Origin: Candidatus Yanofskybacteria bacterium
GTDB taxonomy: Bacteria > Patescibacteriota > Minisyncoccia > 2-02-FULL-40-12 > IGHO2-01-FULL-4-A
NCBI GenBank assembly: GCA_016185545.1
Contig: JACPNJ010000005.1
Span: 79,013 to 143,012, forward strand
Reading direction: 5' to 3'
DNA: 64,000 nucleotides
Below the pieces are notes generated by a model. It was not told the origin of the DNA. It saw only the letters and a program-made list of their open reading frames with translations, and did not search any database. Both the position numbers and the translations under genes were made by a program. The stretch's first letter is position 1. Every line of letters begins with the position of its first letter. Of this stretch, positions 1,894 to 64,000 are shown piece after piece.

Positions 1894-2080
1894 GTTGCTA
1901 CTAAATTACGAAAATGATGCGAAGCGTTAAGCGAGGATTAGCGTACCCTTTGGGGCCGCTGGGGTTGCCGCCAGCATGGTTTTGTCAATGATTGAGCGAT
2001 AGCGAATATCTTGACAAATGGCGGCAATCACAACGGATGAAAAAATCTCGCTGGGATTTTTGAAGTCCCCAAGGGGTATG

Positions 2081-4860: not shown

Positions 4861-6816
4861 TTATTCAGTCTGTGGATAACGAGAATGGTTAAAGTACCAC
4901 AATAGAAAATCATTTGCAACTCTTATGGCCAACCCCTGGCTTTGGTTGATATTTTCAACTAACACCGTTATTACGATTTCCGGGTCGTCATATGGCCCGA
5001 ATACCGTAAACAATGAGTTTAGTCCGCGACCGGAAACTTGTGCCGTGCCGGTTTTAGCCGCCAAAGCAACCGGCACATCCTGAAGCAATGTTGCCGTACC
5101 CGATAAAACAGCCTGCCGCATTCCCTGCCGTACAACATTTAAAACATCTTGCTCAAAGGGCATTTGACCTAAAACTTGGCTATTAAAACCTGCAATTACG
5201 CTACCATCCTGGTTTTTGATTTCTCTTACAATGCGGGGTTTCATTAAATTACCGCCGTTAGCAATGGCCCCAATATATGTATTTATCCAAATGGGTGTTA
5301 CAACTAAATCGCCTTGCCCAATAGAAATGTTATAAGTATCGCCGACATACCACGGCTCACCTTTGGTTTCTCTCTTCCACTCTTTAGATGGCACTAAACC
5401 AACTGTTTCGCCTGGTAAATCAATACCGGTAATCTTATCGGCTCCTGCGCTCTTGAGATATGCCGCAATCCTATCAATTCCAAGGCCCTCTTTAATACTA
5501 CCATGACCACCGCCCAACGAATAAAAGTAAACATCCACTGAATCGGCGATTGCCTTCTTAATATCCGACCAGCCATGCACCTTCCAATCACGAAAAGTAT
5601 AATAGACATTCGGATCAACTTCACTTTGCACGTTTATGCTGCCCCCAGCATATAATATCGTTGAAGGCGTAACTACCCTCTCTTTTAATCCAGCTAAAGC
5701 CAGAAATGGTTTAATTGTAGAGCCAGGGCTATAGCGACCGGACACTGCCCTGTTTAAAAGCGGCTTATTAGAATCATTTAAAATTCGTGATATTCTAGAA
5801 ATATTGTCGGATAAATACGCACTCTCAAAAATATTATTATCAAAAGTCGGCATGCTTACCAGTCCAAGAACGATACCGGTTTTTGGGTTCTGGATCACGG
5901 CAGTGCCACGCCCTATCCCGCCTGACGTAAAAACAGAGCTTATAGATTTGTACAACTGATTTTGTATGGAAGAATCTATATTTAAAAACAGATTATTACC
6001 TGCTTCTGCGTTCTCTAGACCTTTTTTATCAAAAATTGTACTGTCATTATTTAAAAAATCAAAACTTCTATGTTCACCCCGCAAAAATCTCTCATACTGA
6101 GCTTCTAGGCCTAGCCTTCCGACACGATCATTAATCATGAAATAACCGTCGTTTTTAAGTTCATCCGGTGTTACTTTGGCGGTATATCCCAAAATATGGG
6201 CCGCAGCCGGTCCGTCAGGATAAAATCGTTTAACATTGGCCACAGTAAACAATCCGGGCAAAGACATAGTTTCTATTTTTACCATTTCGTCTTTGGTAAG
6301 ATTGTTTTTAACAAGAAAAACCGCTTGATCCTGATTGTCATTGAAAATTTTTGTCAGATATTGGCTATTTTGATTGATTATCGGCGAAAGTCGGCTAATC
6401 ATATCCGTCAATTTGTCATCGGATTCAGGTAAAAACGTATGAACCGCCATTAAATCAAAAACTGGTAAATTCTCAGCCAATAGCTTGCCTCGTGAATCGT
6501 ATATTAAGCCGCGTAGGGGCGATAACTGATAGCGCAAAGAATTACTTTGCTCGGCTAAAATGGTAAAACGTTTACCGTTTACAATTTGCAATTGAAACGA
6601 CTCGAAAATAAAAAAAACAAAAACTACAGCCGCTACAACATAAAAAACATTAAAAACACTGCGGCTGATGGGTGTTTCCATTGTGGGATGAATACTCAAA
6701 GCATCAGCCAGAGTTTCTTCCGGTTTTAATTCATCCTGCTCAAAACGGGTTATTTTGTATTTGTCTAAGTTCATTTTGCTCGTATTATAATGAAGTCCCC
6801 ACGGAATTACGCCCAT
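4861..6816 (-). CDS. mrdA: penicillin-binding protein 2 (class B transpeptidase)
   Basis: 651 aa; N-terminal TM segment; SXXK (GSTIKP) and KTG(T) motifs; sits directly downstream of mreBCD. Confidence 0.85.
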   Translation of the reverse strand: MGVIPWGLHYNTSKMNLDKYKITRFEQDELKPEETLADALSIHPTMETPISRSVFNVFYVVAAVVFVFFIFESFQLQIVNGKRFTILAEQSNSLRYQLSPLRGLIYDSRGKLLAENLPVFDLMAVHTFLPESDDKLTDMISRLSPIINQNSQYLTKIFNDNQDQAVFLVKNNLTKDEMVKIETMSLPGLFTVANVKRFYPDGPAAAHILGYTAKVTPDELKNDGYFMINDRVGRLGLEAQYERFLRGEHRSFDFLNNDSTIFDKKGLENAEAGNNLFLNIDSSIQNQLYKSISSVFTSGGIGRGTAVIQNPKTGIVLGLVSMPTFDNNIFESAYLSDNISRISRILNDSNKPLLNRAVSGRYSPGSTIKPFLALAGLKERVVTPSTILYAGGSINVQSEVDPNVYYTFRDWKVHGWSDIKKAIADSVDVYFYSLGGGHGSIKEGLGIDRIAAYLKSAGADKITGIDLPGETVGLVPSKEWKRETKGEPWYVGDTYNISIGQGDLVVTPIWINTYIGAIANGGNLMKPRIVREIKNQDGSVIAGFNSQVLGQMPFEQDVLNVVRQGMRQAVLSGTATLLQDVPVALAAKTGTAQVSGRGLNSLFTVFGPYDDPEIVITVLVENINQSQGLAIRVANDFLLWYFNHSRYPQTE

Positions 6817-7255
6817 TACTGCGTATTAAAAAAAGGGTGGCGAAAATTACAATCGTCTCCAAAATTATAATTAATACCTGCGACAACAATATGCTCGACT
6901 CCGATCTTATGGATAGTATTATAAAATAGGTAAAAATAAAAATAATGGCATAAATTTCAAGAAAAAAAAGAAAACGTGGATTGACATTAAAACGTGTTTT
7001 GAAGAGGACAATAGCAAGCGTGACGGCCAAAATAGCAAAAGTCATAAAGCCAAAGCGGTAGCCGGAAAAAAAGTCAAAGATTAAAGCAGCAGCTGCGATA
7101 TGCAGCAAATCGTGGGCATCACTCTTACTGGTCAGCATGAAAAAAATAACAAAAACAGGAAAAATAAAAAGCGGCCAAGAAGTCAGGGTGGGTAAAACCC
7201 GCTCCAGTAGAAAAATCACGGCCGATCCTATTATGAAAAATTGTGTTCTGGACAT
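6785..7255 (-). CDS. mreD: rod shape-determining protein MreD (polytopic membrane protein)
   Basis: 156 aa, very hydrophobic, positioned between mreC and mrdA. Confidence 0.55.
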   Translation of the reverse strand: MSRTQFFIIGSAVIFLLERVLPTLTSWPLFIFPVFVIFFMLTSKSDAHDLLHIAAAALIFDFFSGYRFGFMTFAILAVTLAIVLFKTRFNVNPRFLFFLEIYAIIFIFTYFIILSIRSESSILLSQVLIIILETIVIFATLFLIRSNGRNSVGTSL

Positions 7256-7449
7256 GTTTATATGAGTCGTGGTATAATTTTCGTATGGTTATTTAATAAT
7301 TAAAATCGAGGGTAAAAATGAACGACACTGCTACTTTCACGAACCTAAACTTGCGGGGCTTTTCTATTTTTATAAACAGGCTGGGGCAAGTGGTTACCAA
7401 TTTTTATCTGTTGGCTTGAGCAGTAACAAATAAATGTTGATTTTTGAAG

Positions 7450-7592
7450 TTTTTCGCTGATAAAGAAAATTGGGACGGAGCGGAGCCCCGAGCGTAGCGA
7501 GGGGCGTAGCGTAAGGGGTACGATTTTTTTATCTAGAAAAACGAGAAAATCAACATATTATTTGTACTGCGAGGACACCTGATAAAAATTGG
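7450..7592. repeat. left copy of a perfect 143-bp inverted repeat flanking mreC-mreB
   Basis: Exact reverse complement of 9583..9725 by direct comparison; contains the GC hairpin region ggagcggagccccgagcgtagcgaggggcg. Confidence 0.9.
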
Positions 7593-7604
7593 AAACCACT
7601 TGCC

Positions 7605-8438
7605 TCATTTTAATATCACAAACAAACTGGAACCGAGGGAGGGGTCGAAGATGGGTTTAGCGGAAACGTTTTTGAAAAGGGTACTGGATGAGGATTCAAC
7701 CTTGATGATTTTGGCAACGAGCAGGGCCTCCGGCAAACCGTCAAGACCACTGGTAACAATTGTTTCGCCCTCTCTAATTTCATCGCTATTAGCCACAAGG
7801 TTAAGCACCAGATTATTTTGTAATTCGCCTTTTGTTTCAACCAGTGTTCGCGATTCCTGGACTTGTCCAGCATCAGTTTGGGACGGCTCAAACTGATGCT
7901 GGACAAGTCCGCTAATTTTAATACGTGGATCATCAATGAGCAAAATCAAAGCCGAATCATCAAAAACCTGCTCCGTGATGCCAACCAAAATATTGCCTGT
8001 CGCTATAACTGGCATCTTTTTTTCAATGCCGTTCTTTACGCCTTTGTTAATTAATGCCGTTGAGGACAAAGCGCTTCTTTGTATATTAAAAATCCGCGCC
8101 AATAATAACGGCGAATCCAGCCGTTTCGCTACCCCTAGTTCTTCTCTCAAAAAATTATTTTCGCGTTTTAAACTTTCAAGTTCCGCTAATTGCCCGCGTA
8201 AAATATTATTCTCCTTATAAAATCTGGCATTATCATCAATAATCATTTTGGTTTTTAAATATCCGGAAGAATACCTTGAAAAATTTAGCAGATTGTCCGT
8301 CAAAAAAATACCAGGTTTTTCTGTAATTTTATAGACAAAATTCTGCAGAAAATTATCCGTTAAATAATTATTAAAAAAAACAACCCCAGCGACAATTAAA
8401 ATGACGGCCAGATAGTTTTTATAAAAATTACGAGTCAC
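7605..8438 (-). CDS. mreC: rod shape-determining protein MreC
   Basis: 277 aa; N-terminal TM segment, coiled coil (LRGQLAELESLKRENNFLREEL), C-terminal beta domain; downstream of mreB. Confidence 0.75.
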   Translation of the reverse strand: MTRNFYKNYLAVILIVAGVVFFNNYLTDNFLQNFVYKITEKPGIFLTDNLLNFSRYSSGYLKTKMIIDDNARFYKENNILRGQLAELESLKRENNFLREELGVAKRLDSPLLLARIFNIQRSALSSTALINKGVKNGIEKKMPVIATGNILVGITEQVFDDSALILLIDDPRIKISGLVQHQFEPSQTDAGQVQESRTLVETKGELQNNLVLNLVANSDEIREGETIVTSGLDGLPEALLVAKIIKVESSSSTLFKNVSAKPIFDPSLGSSLFVILK

Positions 8439-8473
8439 AATTAGAGATTAGTGATTAGCAGTTGGCAATTTCG

Positions 8474-9523
8474 TCAGATATAGGCTTCTTTGGCCGTCCA
8501 TGCCAAAACATCTTTGAGTGAATCAAGATGTTCCAGAACCATGCCACAACCGCGCACAACTGCCGTCATTGGATCATCTACAATTTTTACCGGGAGTTTG
8601 GATTCGTGGCTGATTAACTCATCAAATCCGCGCAGTAAACTGCCGCCGCCGGCAAGAAAAATGCTACGATTCAGTAAATCAGCAATAAGTTCGGGCGGTG
8701 TCTCCTCAATTGTGCTTTTTATGGCTAAAACGATGCTTCTTATAGAACGATGCATTGCTTTACGCACTTCTTCCGAAGTTATAGTCAACTCCTTAGGCAA
8801 TCCCGTAAGAAGATCGCGGCCACGTACCTGAATTGTCAATTCTTCTTCAAGCGGATAGGCGGAACCGATTGCTAATTTGATATTTTCCGCAGTAGCATCG
8901 CCAATGAGTATATTATGCTCCTCTCTCATAAATTGGCTGATATCGCTGGTTAATTTATCACCGGCAATTCTTAAAGAACGTGAAGCAACAACGCCACCCA
9001 TAGAGATAACCGCAACATCAGTCGTACCCCCGCCGATATCAACAATCAGATTAGCCGCGGCATCCTGAACAGGTAATCTGGCGCCTATCGCCGCCGCCAT
9101 TGGTTCTTCAATTAGAAAAACCTTGCGCGCTCCGGCATTATAAGCTGCATCCTCCACCGCTCTTTTTTCCACTTCGGTAACACTTGCTGGCACGCCTATT
9201 ACCACGCGCGGACGCGGCATCAAAGAAAATGACTTTTCCTGTGCTCTGTCTATAAAGTATTTGAGCATCTGTTCTGTTACTTCAAAATCGGAAACTACAC
9301 CGGCTATCAGCGGTTTTGAAACCATTATGTAGCCGGGTGTGCGGCCAACCATTTTGCGGGCATCTTGGCCAATGGCAAGAATTTGTCCGGTTTTTTGATT
9401 TATCGCGACAATTGACGGCTCATTTATGATAATCCCCTTGCCGCGAATATAAACCAGGGTATTGGCAGTACCCAAATCAATGCCGATATCCTTTGACCAA
9501 AAATTAAAAAATCGTTTTAACAT
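8474..9523 (-). CDS. mreB: rod shape-determining protein MreB (actin homolog)
   Basis: 349 aa; MLKRFFNFWSKDIGIDLGTANTLVY...DIGGGTTD; actin/Hsp70 fold motifs. Confidence 0.92.
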   Translation of the reverse strand: MLKRFFNFWSKDIGIDLGTANTLVYIRGKGIIINEPSIVAINQKTGQILAIGQDARKMVGRTPGYIMVSKPLIAGVVSDFEVTEQMLKYFIDRAQEKSFSLMPRPRVVIGVPASVTEVEKRAVEDAAYNAGARKVFLIEEPMAAAIGARLPVQDAAANLIVDIGGGTTDVAVISMGGVVASRSLRIAGDKLTSDISQFMREEHNILIGDATAENIKLAIGSAYPLEEELTIQVRGRDLLTGLPKELTITSEEVRKAMHRSIRSIVLAIKSTIEETPPELIADLLNRSIFLAGGGSLLRGFDELISHESKLPVKIVDDPMTAVVRGCGMVLEHLDSLKDVLAWTAKEAYI

Positions 9524-9582
9524 GGCAACAGTTTAACATAACAAAATTATTATTAATAATCAAAAATTACAGCTCGCCATTA

Positions 9583-9725
9583 CCAATTTTTATCAGGTGT
9601 CCTCGCAGTACAAATAATATGTTGATTTTCTCGTTTTTCTAGATAAAAAAATCGTACCCCTTACGCTACGCCCCTCGCTACGCTCGGGGCTCCGCTCCGT
9701 CCCAATTTTCTTTATCAGCGAAAAA
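9583..9725. repeat. right copy of the 143-bp inverted repeat
   Basis: Exact reverse complement of 7450..7592. Confidence 0.9.
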
Positions 9726-9799
9726 GCCAATTGATAAAAATTGATAATGGCTCACTCTCATATTTTTACGGGAATATGAAGTCCCAAAAGACACTATGG

Positions 9800-10320
9800 T
9801 TCGGCTTACCTTAAAATTTTGTGACAAAACAAAAACCCCTCGAATGGCCAAACTCGAGAGGTTGGTTCAAAAACAGGTGGCTACCACGACCATTACTTTT
9901 GGCCAAGTAATGGTCAGCCCGCTCAATGGCTACAGGCTCTCCCGGCCTGCCCATCGCTTCCACATGCCCGTCATGCCTTTCTCCTTTCGTTTCGGCATGC
10001 AGTTTGTCAGCCAGTAGGATCACCTTGCGGGTGATGCTGGCTGGGGTGGAAATATTAAGAGTCAAATTGACTCTCGGAGGAACGCGAGAGTCAGGAACAC
10101 TACTGGTCCGGCAACTCCTTCATCGTTACTCCTTTCGTAACGGGTTATTGGAAACCCGAGCGGAGCCAGCCTATCATGTGATCGGCGTTCCGCTGCTCGG
10201 GAGGAGATGCCGTGATAGCAGACGTTGGCGGACACGCAGTCCGCTCTGATGACGTCTTCACGGCAAGCAGAGTCGCCTTTTCTCATTTCCTCGGCAACCC
10301 AGCAAACAGTCCCGAAAGAT
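9800..10320. other. GC-rich, hairpin-dense non-coding island; possible structured RNA of unknown class
   Basis: Local GC is clearly above flanks; only short overlapping ORFs on both strands with non-protein-like composition; many perfect local stems (gactctcg/cgagagtc, cgttac/gtaacg, gcgga/tccgc). Confidence 0.35.
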
Positions 10321-10541
10321 GTAAAGAACTAAGTCTTTTTATAATTAATTTCGGGACTTTTTGCTAGGCTCGAATCAAATTCAAGTTCAATTTAAGAAAA
10401 GTGGCTGGAGAAAGCTGTTTTTTAGCAACAGGTATGCGTCCCCCCGGCGCATCACTATTGCCAATCAACCCTCCCCAGCAAAATACCAACAAAATCAATG
10501 AATTATTGGCATTTTGCTAGGTTCAACTTATTACATATTCA

Positions 10542-11825
10542 TTATAACAAAATATCTACTATATTGTCAAGCTCTATTAGTTTGGCATCTTTCTCACCCC
10601 TCCTTTTTACTTCAACACTCTTCTTTTGTAAAGTCTTCTCACTGACGACAAATCGCAACTGACAGCCAATTAAATCGGCATCGGTAAACTTCTCACCGGC
10701 AGATTTGTCCATCCGGTCATCATACAAAACTTCTATGCCGCTATGCAAGACCTTTTCATAAATTTCATCTCCAGATTTTTCCGTTCCTTCCAATGCCAAT
10801 AGATGAACCTTAAATGGCGCTACCGCTTCCGGCCAAATAATTCCCTCATCATCATGGTGTATTTCCACCAAAGCTCCCATAACTCGCCCCAAGCCGATAC
10901 CATACGAACCCATGATCACGAGATGCGACTCCCCTTTCTCGTCAACAAATTTCAAATCAAACGCTTTTGAATATTTATCACCCAACGGAAAAGTATTGCC
11001 GACTTCAATTGATTTGCGCTCTACTATTTTGCCTTTGCATTTCGGGCACTGGCCGTTGTTCATTAATTTTGAAATCTCCTTATTCTCCGCGTATTCGCAT
11101 TTATCACAAATAAAAATCGTATCCTCGCCGATATCGGCAAGCACTTGAAACTCATGGGTGTTCTCCGCGGTAAATGTCCCGCCAGCGGCTATGGTATAAA
11201 TTGCCTTCAGCCCGCAACGGTGAAAAATCTTATGATATGCTCCTTTCACATCTTCATAATATCGCCAAAGGTCATCTTCCGAGGCGTGGAAACTATACAG
11301 GTCTTTCATCATAAACTCCCGCCCGCGCAATAAACCGGACTTGGCACGCGGTTCGTTGCGGAATTTGGTTTGTATCTGGTAAGCGGCAAAAGGCAGGTCT
11401 TTGTATGAACTGACGAAACGCGAAGCAATCGCCGTCAACACTTCTTCATGAGTCCAACCCAAAACAAAATTACTTAGAGGCTCAACCTCGTAGAGGCTCA
11501 ACCTCGTGGAGGTTGAGCCTCTACGTACTGCATGATCATTGGCTATCTTGAATCCTACCTCAACTTCCCATCTGCCAGTAGCATCAAGATATTTTTTTTC
11601 AACCAACGCCGGCATAAACATTTCTATCCCGCCGATCTTGGCCATTTCTTCTCTGATAATGCCAGCAATTTTTTGCATCACTCGCCAGCCCAACGGTAAA
11701 AAAGTGTAAATTCCCGCAGAGTTTTTGTATATGAAACCGCCACGCTCGAGCAACTGCGCATTAACGCTTGTTTCATCTTTGGGATTCTCGCGGGTTGTTT
11801 TGGTAAAAAGTTGAGATAACTTCAT
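10542..11825 (-). CDS. proS: prolyl-tRNA synthetase
   Basis: Class II aaRS motifs, zinc-binding CDKC...CPKC, C-terminal anticodon-binding domain; start at MKLSQLF; carries an in-frame palindromic insertion. Confidence 0.88.
   Translation of the reverse strand: MKLSQLFTKTTRENPKDETSVNAQLLERGGFIYKNSAGIYTFLPLGWRVMQKIAGIIREEMAKIGGIEMFMPALVEKKYLDATGRWEVEVGFKIANDHAVRRGSTSTRLSLYEVEPLSNFVLGWTHEEVLTAIASRFVSSYKDLPFAAYQIQTKFRNEPRAKSGLLRGREFMMKDLYSFHASEDDLWRYYEDVKGAYHKIFHRCGLKAIYTIAAGGTFTAENTHEFQVLADIGEDTIFICDKCEYAENKEISKLMNNGQCPKCKGKIVERKSIEVGNTFPLGDKYSKAFDLKFVDEKGESHLVIMGSYGIGLGRVMGALVEIHHDDEGIIWPEAVAPFKVHLLALEGTEKSGDEIYEKVLHSGIEVLYDDRMDKSAGEKFTDADLIGCQLRFVVSEKTLQKKSVEVKRRGEKDAKLIELDNIVDILL
11474..11525. 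repeat. palindromic element family A (GAGGCTCAACCTC x2 plus inverted copy) inserted in frame in proS
   Basis: ttagaggctcaacctcgtagaggctcaacctcgtggaggttgagcctctacg translates on the minus strand to RRGSTSTRLSLYEVEPL within ProS. Confidence 0.85.
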
Positions 11826-14716: not shown

Positions 14717-15625
14717 CTAGGCTAGCGAAACGAGAAAATTTTCTAGAGCTAATCTCTGATTAAACTGCGGCTTGTTTATTACTTCGTATAAAACAAGCAG
14801 ATTTTTGAGAATCTTGTGGGTTTTGGGTTCGTTCAAGCGCATTCTTAAATAAAGCATCCAGTACAAAACTTTCTTAGGCAATTCAGCTTTGTTTTTTTCA
14901 TCGGTAAGTTTTTGGGCAATGGTTAGCCGCTCATTGATATCCGATTTAATCAAATACATCACTTCTTCAACCGATTCTTTAACTTCATCAAATGATTTTT
15001 CATCTATGATTTTTTTAATAAGCCCTATCCTACCGTTGGCAAAATCAGTCAAAAAATCAATTTTAGTTTTTGATAATTTAAAATCTGCCAAAAAAATTTT
15101 GATAACCGTTTGCGAATGTGGCTGAAACTTAATTTCCTGACAACGGGAAACTATGGTCGGCAAAAGCGACTCCGAATTAGCGGAAACAAGAATCAGGATA
15201 GACGATAAATTCGGTTCCTCTAGAACCTTCAATAGGGCATTCTGCGCTTCCACTGTCATCAAATAAGCATTATCAATAACCACAAATTTATACGGACTAG
15301 CGCTATAGGGACTTAACGAAATAAAATTTTTAATTTTGCGCACATCTTCAATGGCTATAGTCTGTCCGCTTTCGGAATTGGCCGAATTGACAAATAAAAC
15401 ATCCGGATTATTTAGAGGCTCAACCTCGTAGAGGCTCAACCTCGTAGAGGTTGAGCCTCTAAATAGACTTATTTTAAACAAATTCTGTACCAATTCCAAC
15501 GCAAATGTACGCTTACCTATCATGTCTTGGCCGGTAAAAAGATAGGCATGGCTTAATTGGCCATTTTTTATGACTGTTTCAAAAAAAAATTTATTTTTAT
15601 CAAAACCGATTGTATGCCAAGTCAT
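14717..15625 (-). CDS. holB: DNA polymerase III delta-prime-like clamp-loader subunit
   Basis: 302 aa AAA+ fold (LFTGQDMIGKRTFALELVQNL); 4-nt overlap with murG; carries family A palindromic insertion. Confidence 0.7.
   Translation of the reverse strand: MTWHTIGFDKNKFFFETVIKNGQLSHAYLFTGQDMIGKRTFALELVQNLFKISLFRGSTSTRLSLYEVEPLNNPDVLFVNSANSESGQTIAIEDVRKIKNFISLSPYSASPYKFVVIDNAYLMTVEAQNALLKVLEEPNLSSILILVSANSESLLPTIVSRCQEIKFQPHSQTVIKIFLADFKLSKTKIDFLTDFANGRIGLIKKIIDEKSFDEVKESVEEVMYLIKSDINERLTIAQKLTDEKNKAELPKKVLYWMLYLRMRLNEPKTHKILKNLLVLYEVINKPQFNQRLALENFLVSLA
15413..15464. repeat. palindromic element family A inserted in frame in holB (encodes RGSTSTRLSLYEVEPL)
   Basis: ttagaggctcaacctcgtagaggctcaacctcgtagaggttgagcctctaaa; near-identical to the proS copy. 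Confidence 0.85.
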
Positions 15626-30368: not shown

Positions 30369-30400
30369 TTCAATAACCAACCGCAGGCCTGCCCGCCGAA
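30369..30400 (-). promoter_or_regulatory. 5' leader hairpin cccgcc-TGCGCCGAGGCTTC-ggcggg upstream of the RNase J-like gene
   Basis: Same loop and opposing stem arms as the uvrB copy at 42553. Confidence 0.4.
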
Positions 30401-30564
30401 GCCTCGGCGCAGGCGGGAATTTTCTTTGTTTTAAGCTATTTTCCGTGCTGTGCATCCGTCAATTTGGTCAGATTATAGAAAATGTCATGTGGACAAAAAT
30501 TTGACAAATTATTACATGCATGCTAACCTTACGACAGAATCAACCAGTTTCTAAGGAGGTGGCT

Positions 30565-42552: not shown

Positions 42553-42580
42553 CAAAATTCCCGCCTACGCCAAGGCTTCG
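42553..42580 (+). promoter_or_regulatory. 5' leader hairpin cccgcc-TACGCCAAGGCTTC-ggcggg 25 nt upstream of uvrB
   Basis: Same loop as 30369 and as the leader elements at 31596 and 60729. Confidence 0.4.
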
Positions 42581-42604
42581 GCGGGCAAGCAAACCATAAC
42601 ATAA

Positions 42605-44753: not shown

Positions 44754-44820
44754 GATAAAAATCACCCCCGACTCCGCCTGCAGGCGGAGTCGGGGGTTTC
44801 CGGTTTGTAATTTTTGATAA
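44754..44820 (+). repeat. small repetitive extragenic module: GATAAAAATCACCCCC - 14-bp GC hairpin - GGTTTGTAATTTTTGAT; the hairpin doubles as a terminator
   Basis: Hairpin cccccgactccgcc tgca ggcggagtcggggg at 44765..44796; same end motifs as 47928, 48240 and 55633. Confidence 0.6.
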
Positions 44821-47882: not shown

Positions 47883-47927
47883 ATCTTTTGATTAAATATC
47901 AAAAAACACAAAAAATCAAATTGCTAC

Positions 47928-47966
47928 ATCAAAAATTACAAACCCCGCTCCACCCCCTAATTTTTC
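47928..47966 (-). repeat. repetitive module copy (ATCAAAAATTACAAACC ... CCCCCTAATTTTT), left TIR of a ~357-bp MITE-like unit
   Basis: 17-bp perfect inverted match with 48268..48284. Confidence 0.6.
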
Positions 47967-47998
47967 TTCCTGTATCATGCCTTCATTACAAATTGCGG

Positions 47999-48203
47999 TC
48001 ACTGGCTAAATTGTCGGACACAGACCAGGACCGAATTTCTTAACGACTTGCCGTGCATAAATGCACAAGGCAAGTCTAAAATTCGGGATTGAAATGAAGC
48101 AGTTCATTTCAATCGTCCGTTTGCCGCTTGAAAACTTCGCCTATTGGCTCGTTTTCTGCGCGTTTTCCGACTAGTCCTAGTGTTACCCGACAATTCTTAA
48201 CGC
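47999..48203 (-). ncRNA. structured element copy L (about 205 bp; candidate ncRNA, RNA sense probably on the minus strand)
   Basis: Inverted homolog of 55912..56026 (about 90% over shared parts) with a 9-bp closing helix aattgtcgg/ccgacaatt, a compensatory hairpin difference (gcc-aata-ggc vs agct-tt-agct) and a ~95-bp nested insertion of two perfect hairpins. Confidence 0.5.
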
Positions 48204-48239
48204 CAGTTCCCTTATTTGTATAATCGGCAGATAATGTCA

Positions 48240-48284
48240 GAAAAATTAGGGGGTTGCGCTTGATACGGTTTGTAATTTTTGATA
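48240..48284 (+). repeat. repetitive module copy (GAAAAATTAGGGGG...GGTTTGTAATTTTTGATA), right TIR of the MITE-like unit
   Basis: Inverted partner of 47928..47944. Confidence 0.6.
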
Positions 48285-48294
48285 GGGTAAGCGG

Positions 48295-55632: not shown

Positions 55633-55687
55633 ATCAAAAATTACAAACCGGGAACCCACGATGTAATCATCGGGGGTGATTTTTATC
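55633..55687 (-). repeat. repetitive module copy (ATCAAAAATTACAAACC - hairpin cccacgatg/catcggggg - GGGGGTGATTTTTATC)
   Basis: Inverted homolog of 44754..44820; the hairpin sequence differs but the pairing is preserved. Confidence 0.6.
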
Positions 55688-55911
55688 GTTAGCAAATTGC
55701 TAAAACCAAAAACATTAGAGCGCACCCCGTCAAAAATTATTCAGAGCAAACCATATTGCCTTTTGGGACTTCTGGGATTGTCCCAATTTAGACTAGAGCG
55801 ACATCCTTTGATTTTAAAACATTTGTACCGAGTGACTGATTTATATAACGACTAGAGCGAGCCCCTTAGTTTTTCGTCATTCATCTGTCAACTAACAAAT
55901 TAGCAAAGCGA

Positions 55912-56026
55912 GCGTTAAAAATTGTCGGGTAACGCCAAGACTAGTCGGAAAACGCGCAGAAAACGAAGCTTTAGCTGAAGTTTTCAAGCGGCAAACGGAG
56001 AACTGGTCTGTGTCCGATAATTTAGC
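55912..56026 (+). ncRNA. structured element copy R (about 115 bp; candidate ncRNA)
   Basis: See copy L; closing helix aaattgtcggg/tccgataattt tolerates G-T on the + strand only. Confidence 0.5.
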
Positions 56027-56085
56027 GAGCTTTGCGTATATTTGTAGGCAGACATGATGTTGTAAGAAAAATTAAGGGGCCCGCG

Positions 56086-59147: not shown

Positions 59148-59672
59148 CTAGTCTGATTCTTCGCCACACATTTCAGCGACGGCGGACAAAATTTCCTCGG
59201 GTATCGGAATCTTTTTACCAACCGGACTGACCCCGGGATACCGCCATGCGGATATTATCCGCATTTTTGGTTGCTGGTGGTTGGTTTCTAGTTTCTGGTA
59301 ATTTTTAAATTTTGCATTGCCATTTAAATTGATTCGCATGCGCTTTTCGTTAAGCGTATCCGCATCGTTTTGATTTTTGCCTGCCCCGCCGTTGGCGTAC
59401 GGCCTGGGTAATTTTGCTTGCCCCGTAGGGTCGCGAAGCGACTCCTTCGGGGAATTTTGAATTTCTTGAAACATCACCCATATCTCCTGTTTCTTGCTTG
59501 ATGTCGGCTGCATAACGGCTATAGTTTTGGGCGCAACTCCGTCTTCTCTCCTTTTGGGAAACCTGACGATCCTTTTTATCAAACTCTCTGATATCCCATA
59601 ATAAAGCATCTTGTCTTTGACATGATTAGTCCATTGGTATTTATCATTATCTTTCGGGAGGTTAAATCGCAT
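59148..59672 (-). CDS. DUF4258-like small protein split in frame by a ~75-aa repeat-derived insertion
   Basis: N-terminal YQWTNHVKDKMLYYGISESLIKRIV and C-terminal KMRIISAWRYP match DUF4258 ends; the middle carries element B peptide NSPKESLRDPTGQAK. Confidence 0.4.
   Translation of the reverse strand: MRFNLPKDNDKYQWTNHVKDKMLYYGISESLIKRIVRFPKRREDGVAPKTIAVMQPTSSKKQEIWVMFQEIQNSPKESLRDPTGQAKLPRPYANGGAGKNQNDADTLNEKRMRINLNGNAKFKNYQKLETNHQQPKMRIISAWRYPGVSPVGKKIPIPEEILSAVAEMCGEESD
59378..59470. repeat. palindromic element family B (ccccgtagggtcgcgaagcgactccttcgggg) plus partial duplicate
   Basis: Same 32-nt hairpin as in secA at 62633. Confidence 0.8.
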
Positions 59673-61492: not shown

Positions 61493-64000
61493 TTATCTCC
61501 CATGACATCTTTTATATTTTTTACCTGACCCACAAAAACATGGGGCATTCCTTCCTATTCTCGCATGGTCGAGAATGTTTGATGGCCGACTTGATTCTTG
61601 CTCCATTTGTTTTGAGACAGCTGACCGACTAACTGCCAAATCCTCACGTTTTTCTTCAATTGCAACAGTTTTTGGCTGTTGGACAAATCCAACCTTAAAA
61701 ATTAAACCCGCCACTTGCGCTCCAATGGCCTCCTGCAGTTGAGTGAACATTTTTTGGCCTTCTATTTTATATTCAACTAACGGATCGCGCTGGCCGTAAG
61801 CACGCAGGCGCACCGAGTCGCGAAGATACTCCATCTGTTCAAGATGATCAACCCACAGCTCGTCTATCACGCGTAGTAAAACCATTTTCTCAATATGTCT
61901 CATTGATTCCACGCCTGTTTGCTGTTCACGCTGAATATAAACTTCATCAATCAAACCATGCAGAAATTCGGATAATTTGCCTGGCCCATTCGATGAGTTC
62001 AGGTCAAGCTCTTGTGGTTTTGCGATTTCGTTTAATTTAGCGTGCAAATCGCCAACCATCGGCATCAGAGTTTTAACACTCTCGGCTATTTCTTCGGTAT
62101 TATATCCCCCCGTTTCGCTTAAAGCGTGGAATTGCATAATTTTATCAATATGTTCGTGAATATAATTATTTATTTTGTCCTTGACGCCTTCTCCCCCCAG
62201 TATTTCCTTGCGCAAACTGTAAATCGCGGTTCTGTGGCGATTCATTACATCGTCATATTCTAGGACGTATTTTCGGATATCAAAGTTGTTGCCTTCAATT
62301 TTGGATTGGGCTTGCTCTATGGCGCGGGAAACGAAACGGTTTTCAATAACATCGTCTTCGCTTACGCCAAGCCGATCCATCAAGTTTTTAAGACGATCGC
62401 CGCCGAATATGCGTACCAGCTCATCTTCGGTGGATACAAAAAACTGCGAAGAGCCCGTGTCGCCCTGCCGGCCGGAACGTCCACGCAATTGATTATCTAT
62501 GCGCCTTGCTTCGTGCCTCTCCGTCCCAATCACATGTAAACCTCCTAATTCCTTTACTCTTTTATTTTCTTCCTCCCAATTTTTATATTCTTCATTTAAA
62601 AGTTTATCTTCTTCAATTTTAAATTTTGCCTGCCCCGTAGGGTCGCGAAGCGACTCCTTCGGGGAATTTTGAATTTTGAATTTGCTAGGCGCATGCCCGC
62701 CGAGCATGATATCAACACCCCTGCCGGCCATATTGGTTGCCACCGTAACAGCGCCGAGCCGACCGGCTTGAGCAATAATTTCACCCTCTTGTTCGTGGTT
62801 TTTGGCATTTAAAACTTTGTGCGGTATACCTTCACGGTTGAGATGCACCGATAAAAGTTCATTTTTAATAATCGCCGCCGTACCAACAAGTACCGGTTGA
62901 CCTTTAAGATGCCGCCCCTTGATTTCGGCAACAATTGCTCTGAATTTACCCGCTTCTGTTTTATATATACGATCGGGTAAATCAGCACGTATCATTTGTT
63001 TGTTGGTGGGAATAGTAACGACATCCAGTTTGTAAACCTTGTGAAACTCTTCAGCTGATGTCTGCGCCGTGCCGGTCATACCGGTAAGTTTTTTATACAA
63101 GCGAAAATAATTTTGGAAAGTAATCGTGGCATAAGTTCGGGATTCTTTCTGGACATATACCCCCTCTTTGGCTTCAATCGCTTGATGCAATCCCTCCGAC
63201 CATCGCCGCCCCGGCATTAAACGGCCGGTAAATTCATCTACTATGATTACTTCACCGTCTTTTACAACGTAATCCTTGTCGCGGTGGAAAAGAATTTGCG
63301 CTTTCAACGCCTGTTCAAGATGGTGAACATAACGAGTACCGCCTTCCTCGTAGATGTTTTTGAGATTCAGCACGCTTTCAACTTTTTCAATGCCTTTTTC
63401 GGTAATTGACACGGCTTTCAATTTTTCATCAACATTATAGTCTTCGTTTTCGTGGAGACGTGGAACAATTTTGGCAAAAGTTTCGTAAAGCTTAGTTGAA
63501 TCAGAATCCGGTGCAGAAATAATTAGCGGGGTTCTGGCTTCATCTATTAAAATGGAGTCAATTTCGTCAACAATGGCATAATTATGCCCTCGGGTCTGCG
63601 CAACTTGCCCCAATTCATATGCCATGTTGTCCCGTAAATAATCAAAACCGAATTCGTTATTGGTCCCATAAGTAATGTCGGCTTCGTATGCTTCTCGCCT
63701 AGTAACCGGACGCAGAAATTCATGAACAACCCTGAATGCCCCTGTTTCATCGCGTATTTCGTCTAATTTTCGTGATTTATCATTTTCTTTTTCACTTTTG
63801 AATTTGAAATTATCATTTTGAATTTTGAATTTTGAATTTTGAATTTCGCTATGCAGTGGATCATAAACGTAACTCATTTCATGGTTCAAACATCCGACAT
63901 TCATTCCGAGAAGATGGTATATCTGCCCCATCCATGCCGCATCGCGCCTTGAGAGATAATCGTTCACGGTAACTATGTGGACCCCATTAGAAGTAGCCGC
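61493..64000 (-). CDS. secA: preprotein translocase ATPase SecA (N-terminus beyond window edge)
   Basis: DEAD motor, GGLHVIGTERHE, C-terminal zinc finger CFCGSGKKYKRCHG; ORF open to position 64000. Confidence 0.92.
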   Translation of the reverse strand, partial: AATSNGVHIVTVNDYLSRRDAAWMGQIYHLLGMNVGCLNHEMSYVYDPLHSEIQNSKFKIQNDNFKFKSEKENDKSRKLDEIRDETGAFRVVHEFLRPVTRREAYEADITYGTNNEFGFDYLRDNMAYELGQVAQTRGHNYAIVDEIDSILIDEARTPLIISAPDSDSTKLYETFAKIVPRLHENEDYNVDEKLKAVSITEKGIEKVESVLNLKNIYEEGGTRYVHHLEQALKAQILFHRDKDYVVKDGEVIIVDEFTGRLMPGRRWSEGLHQAIEAKEGVYVQKESRTYATITFQNYFRLYKKLTGMTGTAQTSAEEFHKVYKLDVVTIPTNKQMIRADLPDRIYKTEAGKFRAIVAEIKGRHLKGQPVLVGTAAIIKNELLSVHLNREGIPHKVLNAKNHEQEGEIIAQAGRLGAVTVATNMAGRGVDIMLGGHAPSKFKIQNSPKESLRDPTGQAKFKIEEDKLLNEEYKNWEEENKRVKELGGLHVIGTERHEARRIDNQLRGRSGRQGDTGSSQFFVSTEDELVRIFGGDRLKNLMDRLGVSEDDVIENRFVSRAIEQAQSKIEGNNFDIRKYVLEYDDVMNRHRTAIYSLRKEILGGEGVKDKINNYIHEHIDKIMQFHALSETGGYNTEEIAESVKTLMPMVGDLHAKLNEIAKPQELDLNSSNGPGKLSEFLHGLIDEVYIQREQQTGVESMRHIEKMVLLRVIDELWVDHLEQMEYLRDSVRLRAYGQRDPLVEYKIEGQKMFTQLQEAIGAQVAGLIFKVGFVQQPKTVAIEEKREDLAVSRSAVSKQMEQESSRPSNILDHARIGRNAPCFCGSGKKYKRCHGR
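62624..62690. repeat. family B palindromic element inserted in frame in the secA variable linker (encodes NSPKESLRDPTGQAK)
   Basis: Direct sequence identity to 59420..59452. Confidence 0.8.
63815..63847. repeat. (ATTTTGA)x4 heptamer array in the secA C-terminal linker
   Basis: Encodes KFKIQNSKFKIQN. Confidence 0.8.

Follow-up and report, generated by a model that had tools for sequence, protein, structure and literature searches.

Are the two inverted 143-bp repeats that bracket mreC and mreB in a genome of Candidatus Yanofskybacteria the arms of an invertible cell-shape segment, or are they copies of an intergenic repeat that happens to lie on both sides of these genes? We addressed this question in the 64,000-nucleotide (64-kb) stretch of DNA that contains the locus, here called the window, and by comparison with the corresponding regions of related genomes.

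Architecture and assembly of the repeat pair

Direct sequence comparison bore out the claim of an earlier note on this DNA that the inverted repeats are perfect, as the left copy and the reverse complement of the right one were identical at 143 of 143 positions (cf. Table 1). A repeat search of the window gave slightly longer arms of 146 nt (7450-7595 and 9580-9725), which differed at a single position (7593) and were separated by 1984 nt. The 143-bp unit occurred twice in the 64-kb window, and a 51-nt piece of it was likewise found at two sites only, against none expected from 100 shuffles. The note was also right that the bracketed segment contains mreC and mreB alone, with mreD and mrdA lying outside it, mreD being a label given by position and orthology: the corresponding ORF had no Pfam or NCBIfam match, and its ortholog in the relative L019 gave a weak, sub-threshold match to MreD. 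The order mreB-mreC-(spacer)-mreD-mrdA, on one strand, was the same across all relatives compared.

In the right copy, the A arm of the unit is directed at mreB and terminates 59 nt ahead of its ATG. The A arm of the left copy is directed at the 3' end of mreC, and a class II tRNA synthetase gene adjoins the right copy. GTAG motifs and a GNA-triloop mini-hairpin could be read from the sequence of the core. Of the GC hairpin that the earlier note had assigned to each repeat, the core mini-hairpin is indeed present, but it is weak, and the fold of the 143-nt unit by itself does not surpass that of shuffled sequences (z of -0.75 and +0.45), which led us to reject the idea that the unit acts on its own as a terminator or structured RNA. 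The CCAATTTTTATC hairpin was also inspected by eye as a possible integron attC site, dif/Xer site or DnaA box, and these readings were dropped, the consensus motifs being missing. A coding role was rejected as well, since the only ORF in the right copy, of 45 aa, is not recorded as a called gene and, because the reading frame differs, is not matched in the left copy.

Strong folding is a property of the larger palindromes that enclose the two copies (z of -10.6 on the left and -4.9 on the right). RNA folding predicted that the left 226-nt element forms a single long imperfect hairpin with a dG of -81.7 kcal/mol. Its A' arm lies beyond the perfect repeat, was matched by nhmmer at 7390-7463 (E = 3e-15) and is about 80% complementary to the A arm at 7540-7595, so that the left element carries terminal inverted repeats. 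At the right locus, the 34-nt stretch corresponding to 7416-7449 is missing and the second arm is reduced to about 22 nt, and an inverted repeat search paired the flank of the right copy with 9745-9765. The right insertion is made up of a B-arm stretch that resembles an element of the relative L017, a CAATT-TTTATC-AATTGG hairpin, the 143-bp unit and the pairing flank. Each copy thus has its own locus-specific complementary flanking arms, one within and one beyond the bracketed segment, and those on the left are orthologous to the arms of a hairpin in L019. Long palindromic spacers are common in the window, given that 7 of its 21 spacers of at least 120 nt fold at z ≤ -5.

Table 1. Positions of the repeat copies, the enclosing palindromic elements and the neighbouring genes in the window.
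Feature	Position	Strand	Description
Left copy, 143-bp unit	7450..7592	+	asymmetric; GC-rich core, then A arm
Right copy, 143-bp unit	9583..9725	-	exact reverse complement of 7450..7592
GC-rich core, left copy	7472..7522	+	CCCC-GA-GC-GTA-GC-GA-GGGG mini-hairpin, then T7 run
GC-rich core, right copy	9653..9703	-	counterpart of left core
Left full palindromic element	7382..7607	.	226 nt; arms 7382-7402 and 7587-7607, A' arm, core, A arm
A' arm	7394..7449	-	inverted, ~80% similar to A arm; directed at mreD
Left insertion	7403..7580	.	178 nt extra relative to L019 and L020; exactly in loop of hairpin after mreC stop
Right insertion	9567..9827	-	261 nt extra relative to sister species (L020); long-gap pairwise alignment
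mreB	8474..9523	-	Pfam PF06723, 460.7 bits; NCBIfam NF010539, 479.6 bits (cut-off 293)
mreC	7605..8438	-	Pfam PF04085, 90.7 bits; 100% identical to NCBI Yanofskybacteria MreC
mreD-like ORF, 156 aa	6785..7255	-	by position and orthology only; 60% identical to L019 ortholog
mrdA (PBP2)	4861..6816	-	TIGR03423, 467 bits (cut-off 455); Pfam matches
mreB proximal promoter-like motif	9537..9571	-	TGTAATTTTTGATT, 17 nt, TATGTT
Terminator-like hairpin of unit upstream of mreB	9834..9863	-	orthologous to L020 terminator

A trivial explanation would be an assembly artefact, in which the assembler had turned one true copy, or two diverged ones, into a perfect inverted repeat by duplication or merging. The sequence of the window comes from a metagenome scaffold, and assemblers can pop bubbles between near-identical repeats. 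Independent Logan assemblies of three sequencing runs nevertheless contained the inner segment together with its junctions to the two repeats, the left junction being covered by one contig (L001, 100%) and the right one by all three; L001 and L003 matched the window at 100% and L002 at 99.8%, with 3 mismatches in 1932 nt. All these contigs end on entering the repeats, and their stops (7426/7440 and 9601) lie off the exactly predicted points, which shows extra graph complexity and hints at further copies of the repeat. On the other hand, the two outer flanks differ from each other and pair each with the inner flank of the same copy, the gene order is canonical, and the same unit is present, with one internal difference, in an independent metagenome-assembled genome (MAG) of another species. 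We regard an artefact as exceedingly improbable, although, had the assembler merged near-identical copies, the true identity could fall slightly short of perfect.

Empty sites and further copies in related genomes

Alignment with the relatives L019 and L020, in which the left and the right site are both empty, revealed presence and absence of the inserts at orthologous sites. Both relatives have a compact hairpin after mreC that lacks the insert; an inverted duplication of TTTATC/GATAAA leaves a 6-nt ambiguity in where the left insertion is placed. On the other side, the terminator of L020 abuts the mreB promoter, its T-tract running directly into it, while the window has 261 nt more at this place. 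No direct target-site duplication was found at the left locus, where the loop hexamer is inverted instead (TTTATC...GATAAA), and TTTTG, in a T-rich context, is a possible target-site duplication at the right one. The unit of 143 bp and the full inserts of 178 and 261 nt are non-coding and of the small size typical of MITEs (about 50-500 bp). In the closest relative, L017 (MreC 74%), this mreC hairpin is occupied by a palindromic insert of another kind, which matches positions 1943-2072 of the window at 91% identity over 130 nt.

A further copy of the unit was found in the sister species JACOZZ01 (L008), at a contig end and at a different locus, and it is the only copy detectable in the representative genome of this species. 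It is 98.6% identical over 141 nt, has the orientation of the right window copy and lies upstream of a 914-aa ORF (probably secA), ending 57 nt ahead of the ATG of this ORF. By comparison, the DNA of the two species is 79% identical in mreBC, 78% in the tRNA-synthetase gene and 74% in the non-coding stretch 5' of mreB, and at a divergence of 21% the probability of finding two or fewer differences in this copy is 3e-12. A distant relative whose MreC is 59% identical has an A arm on its own, with 91% identity, in front of mreD and directed at it.

An nhmmer profile found no further A-arm copies in the 64-kb window, which argues against a general promoter role. The 24-mer of the core also turned up on seven metagenome contigs, but the shared sequence extended over no more than 24-29 nt. 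This stretch is a GC mini-hairpin motif that recurs within unrelated elements, and we therefore rejected the contigs as carriers of element copies. Neither the core nor the A arm matched any viral contig in the scans, and BLAST against phage and plasmid records found none to the repeat. In gathering mode, Rfam had no match to the repeat either, the only one in the window being a tRNA elsewhere; in E-value mode, the left palindrome matched a plant miRNA-precursor model at 51.8 bits, far below its gathering score of 245. A Pfam screen of the 40 ORFs of at least 110 aa in the 64 kb detected no transposase, integrase, invertase, Y1 transposase/RAYT or other recombinase.

These 143-bp arms are, in our judgement, probably copies of a low-copy, non-coding MITE/REP-like repeat that was recently copied or homogenised, and their inverted arrangement is incidental. 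The full element would measure about 180-260 bp, and its host group would be a subclade of Candidatus Yanofskybacteria (CPR, groundwater). Each copy appears to occupy a pre-existing 'safe' site, namely, on the left, the hairpin loop just past mreC and, on the right, the space that separates the mreB promoter from the terminator of the preceding unit. The shared part (the core plus one arm) may have been copied recently, or gene-converted through the common CCAATTTTTATC hairpin motif, and such copying or homogenisation would account for the perfect identity. Copying might proceed by transposition in trans or by templated repair or template switching at hairpins, and the opposite orientations would be a by-product of landing in palindromic targets rather than the mark of a dedicated inversion switch. 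The main effect of the inserts would presumably be a long hairpin added between transcription units.

The earlier note had itself suggested that a dispersed repeat might flank the operon, and this suggestion gains support from the sister-species copy, the empty sites, the insert in L017 and the common palindromic spacers, where 'dispersed' refers to few instances because only three near-identical copies are known. Its proposal of a recent duplication or gene conversion agrees with our data too, for the two copies show 0 differences in 143 positions, whereas 3 of the 22 positions next to them differ (P ~8e-10 if the rate were uniform). Gene conversion, or templated copying of part of the element, accounts better for such uneven divergence than a simple transposition of the entire element would.

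Inversion and regulation as alternative readings

Could the repeats still be the arms of a functional invertible segment, in which RecA or an unlinked recombinase flips mreBC and orientation changes expression? Perfect inverted homology of 143 bp at a spacing of 2 kb is a competent substrate for homologous recombination; RuvA is encoded within the window, and the arms hold outward- and inward-facing promoter-like sequences. An inversion gives no new k-mer shorter than 143, and the Logan contigs (k = 31) break at the repeats, so that public short-read assemblies are compatible with a minority orientation. Invertons such as fimS, hin and the Bacteroides capsule promoters consist of a short promoter-bearing segment between arms of about 10-40 bp and are served by a dedicated recombinase. 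The mre locus shares with them a segment bracketed by inverted repeats, but its 143-bp arms are far longer, the segment is far larger, with whole genes and the promoter motif that belongs to them in its 2 kb, and no recombinase was found among the ORFs of the window that were screened.

The promoter-like motif of mreB lies inside the bracketed segment and is conserved in L020 and L021, both of which lack the element. The motif TGTAATTTTTGAT has five exact copies in the window (eight when up to one mismatch is accepted) vs 0.55 expected. Apart from the mreB copy, four exact copies remain, three of which are directed at a downstream gene start. As the segment comprises whole genes with their own conserved promoter motif, a flip would not be predicted to reconnect a promoter. 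A reverse-strand gene parts mreBC from mreD-mrdA in relatives, where mreD-mrdA is already a separate unit. The claim that inversion swaps the strand that is driven found no support in view of the internal mreB motif, the separate mreD-mrdA unit and the lack of a recombinase in the window. Moreover, the matched flanking arms and synteny show that the consensus has the ancestral orientation: with locus-specific arms matched at each copy, the assembled orientation is that at the arrival of the inserts. The same unit is also solitary at another locus in another species, and a literature search on mreB combined with invertible elements or phase variation found nothing.

A functional invertible segment is thus highly improbable, and nothing in the evidence points to a dedicated inversion switch for cell-shape genes. 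Homologous recombination could physically flip mreBC and, judging from the sequence, would probably rewire little; if the arms are copies of a palindromic repeat, such flips of the 2-kb segment may occur at low frequency with little regulatory consequence. That the arms mediate reversible flipping of mreBC at a measurable frequency in natural populations, with orientation mattering, we consider very unlikely. Were it true, orientation could matter, for example, because the outward-facing arms drive antisense transcription or because replication conflicts become head-on, and flipping would produce heterogeneous expression of cell-shape genes in a CPR bacterium.

Inverted paralogous repeats such as tufA/tufB of Salmonella, rrn operons and IS copies are substrates for RecA-dependent gene conversion and inversion. 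Like tufA/tufB, the repeats studied here are homogenised inverted copies that lie kilobases apart, and in tufA/tufB conversion keeps the identity and inversion is a by-product. Unlike those genes, which are at least ~1 kb long and under selection, the repeat is a 143-bp non-coding sequence for which conversion is a candidate mechanism and inversion a possible by-product.

A second alternative is that the unit is a conserved cis-regulatory cassette in front of envelope genes (mreB, mreD and probably secA) and not a mobile element. It would combine a terminator or insulator with a promoter, or act as an RNA-processing hairpin, being kept near-invariant by selection and duplicated by gene conversion. 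This would explain why the solo A arm aimed at mreD is so well preserved where MreC is only 59% identical, and indeed such conservation, with the arm always facing the downstream gene, could reflect selection for a cis-regulatory role. It would also fit the similar distances, 57 and 59 nt, and the same orientation in which the unit ends before probable secA and mreB, the promoter-like hexamers in the arms and the T7 run in the core. In mRNA, the left palindrome would give a long duplex in the stretch from mreC to mreD, and Correia and ERIC elements form long mRNA duplexes of this kind. However, close relatives lack the unit at the orthologous sites and yet have the mreB promoter motif and the mreC hairpin, the left copy faces the 'wrong' way relative to the operon, other genes of the 64 kb have no A-arm copies upstream, and the unit alone has no significant fold. 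Promoter-like matches are frequent in AT-rich DNA (22 were found in the repeat region vs 9 expected), and between the unit and the start codon of the gene that follows it lie promoter-like motifs belonging to that gene. We therefore rate the cassette as unlikely, though clearly less so than an inversion switch, and retain the palindromic intergenic repeat as the preferred explanation.

Relation to known bacterial repeats

Bacterial MITE-like palindromic repeats include Correia/NEMIS of Neisseria, ERIC/IRU of enterobacteria and RUP/BOX of pneumococci. The elements described here resemble these families in being non-coding, about 150-260 bp long and built of long imperfect inverted arms that form a single hairpin; in their intergenic location, in either orientation, with presence and absence at orthologous sites; and in having promoter- and terminator-like motifs and a conservation far above that of the surrounding genes. 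They differ from them in that the repeat is very low-copy where searched (two in 64 kb and one in the sister genome), has no clear target-site duplication and no cognate IS or transposase in the window, and in that the left insertion sits at the exact symmetry centre of an older hairpin, in a small-genome CPR host.

Nested palindromes are also known from REP/BIME sequences, into which the IS elements IS1397 and ISKpn1 insert. ISPpu9 is reported as another IS element that inserts into REP palindromes (PMC12288879). GTAG-tagged REPs are defined as GC-rich palindromes of 20-40 bp with an unpaired GTAG at one end, a high copy number and a RAYT gene (PMC3733652). As in these systems, short GC-rich stem-loops 3' of genes act as landing pads at the mre locus, giving nested palindromes, and the core of the repeat holds GTAG motifs and a GNA-triloop mini-hairpin. 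In contrast to the GTAG-tagged REPs, the repeat is low-copy and has its GTAG in the hairpin loop and not in an unpaired end tag, and in contrast to REP/RAYT systems no RAYT, IS or Y1 transposase gene was found in the window.

What had looked like a possible cell-shape switch is in this way reclassified as two copies of a palindromic intergenic repeat. Streamlined CPR genomes, which are usually thought to be poor in mobile DNA, would then carry several families of small palindromic inserts that nest in terminator hairpins and whose exchange or copying outpaces the divergence of genes (98.6% vs ~79% identity). We found no paper on MITEs of Patescibacteria in the literature. If confirmed genome-wide, the inserts could serve as strain markers, account for recurrent contig breaks in Patescibacteria MAGs and provide a system for asking how palindromic elements spread without a transposase.

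The inverted repeat around mreBC

The exact 143-bp inverted repeat described in the earlier note was borne out, since 9583-9725 is the reverse complement of 7450-7592 at 143/143 positions; the arms reach 146 nt if one mismatch (7593) is allowed, with an inter-arm distance of 1984 nt. A 51-nt piece of this unit occurred at only two sites in the window, the left and the right copy, and in none of 100 shuffles. The gene positions likewise agreed with the description that only mreC and mreB are bracketed, with a mreD-like ORF and mrdA outside. The window MreC was 100% identical to that of a Candidatus Yanofskybacteria MAG from NCBI (339-kb contig), and the mreB-mreC segment was recovered independently in Logan assemblies from three sequencing runs (two contigs are 100% identical to the window, and L002 is 99.8% identical, differing at 3 of 1932 nt). 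The Logan contig that covers all of mreBC (7563..9601) runs into both repeats and ends there. Since the segment is reproduced in independent assemblies, the inverted repeat is genuine and no quirk of a single assembly.

On the mreD side, where the predicted end was 7479, the Logan contigs broke off at 7426 in three runs and at 7440 in one; the mreBC contig broke off at 9601, ahead of the predicted 9612. These k=31 contig ends lie 39-53 nt (left) and 11 nt (right) short of the perfect-repeat prediction. The early breaks imply additional branching in the community graph, due either to strain variants at 7427, 7441, and 9602 or to further community copies, in which case the shared sequence would already start at 9572 and at 7397, the position where CCAATTTTTATC begins.

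Features of the mre region and recurrent repeats (window positions unless a relative's locus is named)
Feature	Position	Strand	Remark
mreC	7605-8438	minus	between arms
mreB	8474-9523	minus	between arms
mreD-like ORF, 156 aa	6785-7255		outside left arm; named from position and 60% identity to an ortholog whose own MreD match is weak and sub-threshold
mrdA/PBP2	4861-6816		outside left arm
GATAAAAATCACCCCCGA module	44754-44818, 55633-55697; L019 2976-3040; L020 4678-4787; L021 112-163
Short GC-hairpin repeat pairs	11453-11539 and 15407-15477; 59410-59464 and 62622-62676; 30387-30423 and 42554-42590

The unit has two parts, an asymmetric GC-rich core and, after it, an AT-rich A arm; the core (7472-7522 in the left copy) contains a T7 run and a small CCCC-GA-GC-GTA-GC-GA-GGGG hairpin. 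The GC hairpin previously noted in each repeat is present, but it is a minor feature, because the unit alone has no folding advantage over shuffles (z -0.75 and +0.45). At the left locus, the unit is preceded by an inverted A-like stretch, the A-prime arm (7394-7449; ~80% reverse complement of the A arm, 7540-7595), and 7382-7607 was predicted to fold into one long imperfect hairpin (dG -81.7 kcal/mol, z -10.6), while at the right locus 34 nt of the second arm are absent and the fold is weaker (z -4.9). Both copies have complementary flanks of their own (7382-7396 with 7593-7607 and 9562-9582 with 9745-9765), and CCAATTTTTATC or its complement is found at the element ends at both loci.

Insertion sites in relatives and copies at other loci

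The window was compared with the mre loci of relatives (MreC identity of 74% for L016/L017, 70% for L019 and for L020 from the sister-species MAG JACOZZ01, and 59% for L021-L024), all of which have mreB, mreC, a spacer, mreD, and mrdA in this order on one strand. Directly past the mreC stop, L019 carries a compact hairpin, GAGGCGAGTGGTTGCCAATT-TTTATC-AATTGGCAACCACTCGCCTC, which is partly deleted in L020; alignment revealed the same arms in the window, with an additional 178 nt placed exactly within the loop. Upstream of mreB, a terminator T-tract in L020 directly joins TTTTTGATTGTTAATAATAATTTTGTTATGTT...ATG, and the window has kept both the orthologous terminator (9863-9834) and the L020-like promoter-like stretch, separated by 261 nt (9567-9827) that include the right repeat. 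On these site comparisons, both window copies are insertions relative to close relatives. Furthermore, the mreC-downstream hairpin of the closest relative, L017, contains a different palindromic insert of ~200 nt. At L017 1300-1430 this insert matches window 1943-2072 with 91% identity over 130 nt, a stretch that belongs to the palindromic element filling the SerRS-LysRS spacer (1936-2090; outer arms GGATTAGCGTACCC...GGGGTATGCTAATCC). Judged by its inserts, this hairpin has repeatedly served as a landing site. L021 carries an A arm on its own (91% over 67 nt), which is directed at mreD from 116 nt upstream.

A scan of the GTDB representatives (one genome per species) with a 24-mer from the core gave one match, at the extreme end of contig JACOZZ010000059 of JACOZZ01. 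This contig is syntenic with window 56-64 kb (81-85% identity), and a 914-aa ORF, probably secA, begins 57 nt downstream of the end of its unit. The element was 98.6% identical to the window unit over 141 nt, as against 79% for mreBC DNA, 78% for the tRNA-synthetase gene, and 74% for the non-coding sequence upstream of mreB (probability of at most 2 differences at 21% divergence, 3e-12). The element either moved recently between these co-resident lineages or is under unusually strong constraint. Searches of viral, phage, and plasmid sequences gave no match to the element.

The empty sites in relatives and the copy at another JACOZZ01 locus support the view, also raised in the earlier note, that this is a dispersed repeat whose position around the operon is fortuitous. 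The element seems to work like a MITE/REP-type palindromic repeat, of the type of Correia or ERIC repeats, but we stop short of classing it as a proven MITE because it shows no clear target-site duplication, no known transposase, and a low copy number in the 64-kb window and the genomes scanned.

As to the perfect identity, the 22 nt next to the 143-nt block contain three differences between the loci and are followed by a 34-nt indel; at this flanking rate, 0/143 differences has a probability of ~8e-10. The indel limits the block on one side, and on the other it stops where the shared hairpin motif ends. Two independent transpositions of a whole element fit this pattern less well than does gene conversion or recent templated copying of only part of the element. 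Both window copies also have C where JACOZZ01 has T, as would be expected if they were homogenised or duplicated within the window lineage. The earlier explanation by gene conversion or recent duplication is supported by the 0/143 versus 3/22 differences.

Seven contigs (L009-L015) from a metagenome scan were rejected as element copies: a 24-29-nt GC mini-hairpin alone is in common, and the elements are unrelated. Exact copies of the 24-mer GAGCCCCGAGCGTAGCGAGGGGCG appear in these contigs in four or more settings that have nothing else in common, including gtcattgcGAG...CTCgcaatgac elements and a tandem array in L013, which suggests a widespread class of GC mini-hairpins around a GCGNAGC triloop.

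The mreC-mreD junction and the question of inversion

The mreC-mreD junction is a hypervariable slot (window 7256-7400). Reverse-strand ORFs of 239, 151, and 203 aa occupy it in L019 (2122-2841), L020 (4094-4549), and L017 (1545-2156), respectively; they are membrane or secreted-looking, mutually unrelated, and gave no Pfam family. The window slot holds no ORF; what is left there is a 7-codon remnant that weakly matches the L020-type ORF (E = 0.02). A strong sigma-70-like site (TGGACA, 18 nt, TATAAT, upstream TG; 11/12) was found at 7249-7278 (+), on the strand opposite mreD, overlapping the mreD start and directed at the left repeat. Possibly this site is a promoter left behind when the reverse-strand gene was lost, and the predicted plus-strand transcript would span ~240 nt and end at the core's T7 run.

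It had been proposed that mreBC may form an invertible cell-shape segment and that inversion could swap which strand is driven. Perfect inverted homology of 143 bp is a workable substrate for homologous recombination, and RuvA is encoded in the window. However, no recombinase, integrase, or transposase domain was detected in any ORF tested across the 64 kb, and the neighbour genes in the window are housekeeping. Furthermore, the promoter-like motif of mreB (TGTAATTTTTGATT, 17 nt, TATGTT; 9571-9537) lies within the bracketed segment and is kept in relatives without the element; the window contains the motif five times exactly (eight times with at most one mismatch) versus 0.55 expected, and three of the other four exact copies face a downstream gene start. 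Since a reverse-strand gene lies between mreC and mreD in three relatives, mreBC and mreD-mrdA were already separate units in the clade, and a flip of mreBC would therefore reconnect no promoters. In addition, the inner flank of each copy is complementary to its outer flank, and the left flanks match the ancestral hairpin arms. This complementarity would fail after a fixed inversion, which counts against a programmed switch. With the mreB motif inside, the flanks un-inverted, no recombinase domain in the ORFs tested, and mreD-mrdA separate in relatives, neither proposal was supported. A minority inverted form may exist and would be invisible to short-read k-mer assemblies, because inversion makes no new sequence shorter than 143 nt.

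Other palindromic spacers and repeats in the window

Seven of the 21 window spacers of at least 120 nt gave a fold z of -5 or lower (with mononucleotide shuffles as a rough control). The mre pair is therefore one example of something ordinary in this organism, a long palindromic spacer. The 383-nt spacer 47912-48294 folds end to end (dG -150 kcal/mol, z -10.9), carries outward-facing promoter-like TGTAATTTTTGAT at both ends, and has an inverted copy 7.6 kb off at 55862-55999 (82% over ~140 nt). Together with 55862-56079, it gives the window a second pair of long inverted repeats.

One module recurs: GATAAAAATCACCCCCGA...TCGGGGGTTxCCGGTTTGTAATTTTTGAT combines a GC hairpin with a promoter-like motif, is 75-97% identical across loci and species, and looks like a terminator-promoter cassette. 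Short dispersed GC-hairpin repeats (TAGAGGCTCAACCTCG units; GCCTGCCCCGTAGGG...; GCCTGCCCGCCGAAGCC...) sit at gene ends and are probably of terminator type.

A non-coding stretch of ~0.7-1 kb (window 9830-10540; L020 1117-2127), located between mreB and the gene for a class II tRNA synthetase, had no Rfam match. It is GC-richer than its surroundings, has a terminator at its end, and shows partial conservation across species (74% over 354 nt, 88% over 89 nt); an RNA gene not yet described and a decayed coding sequence are both candidate readings. The whole spacer 9524-10541, including the palindromic right insertion, has a fold z of -6.9.
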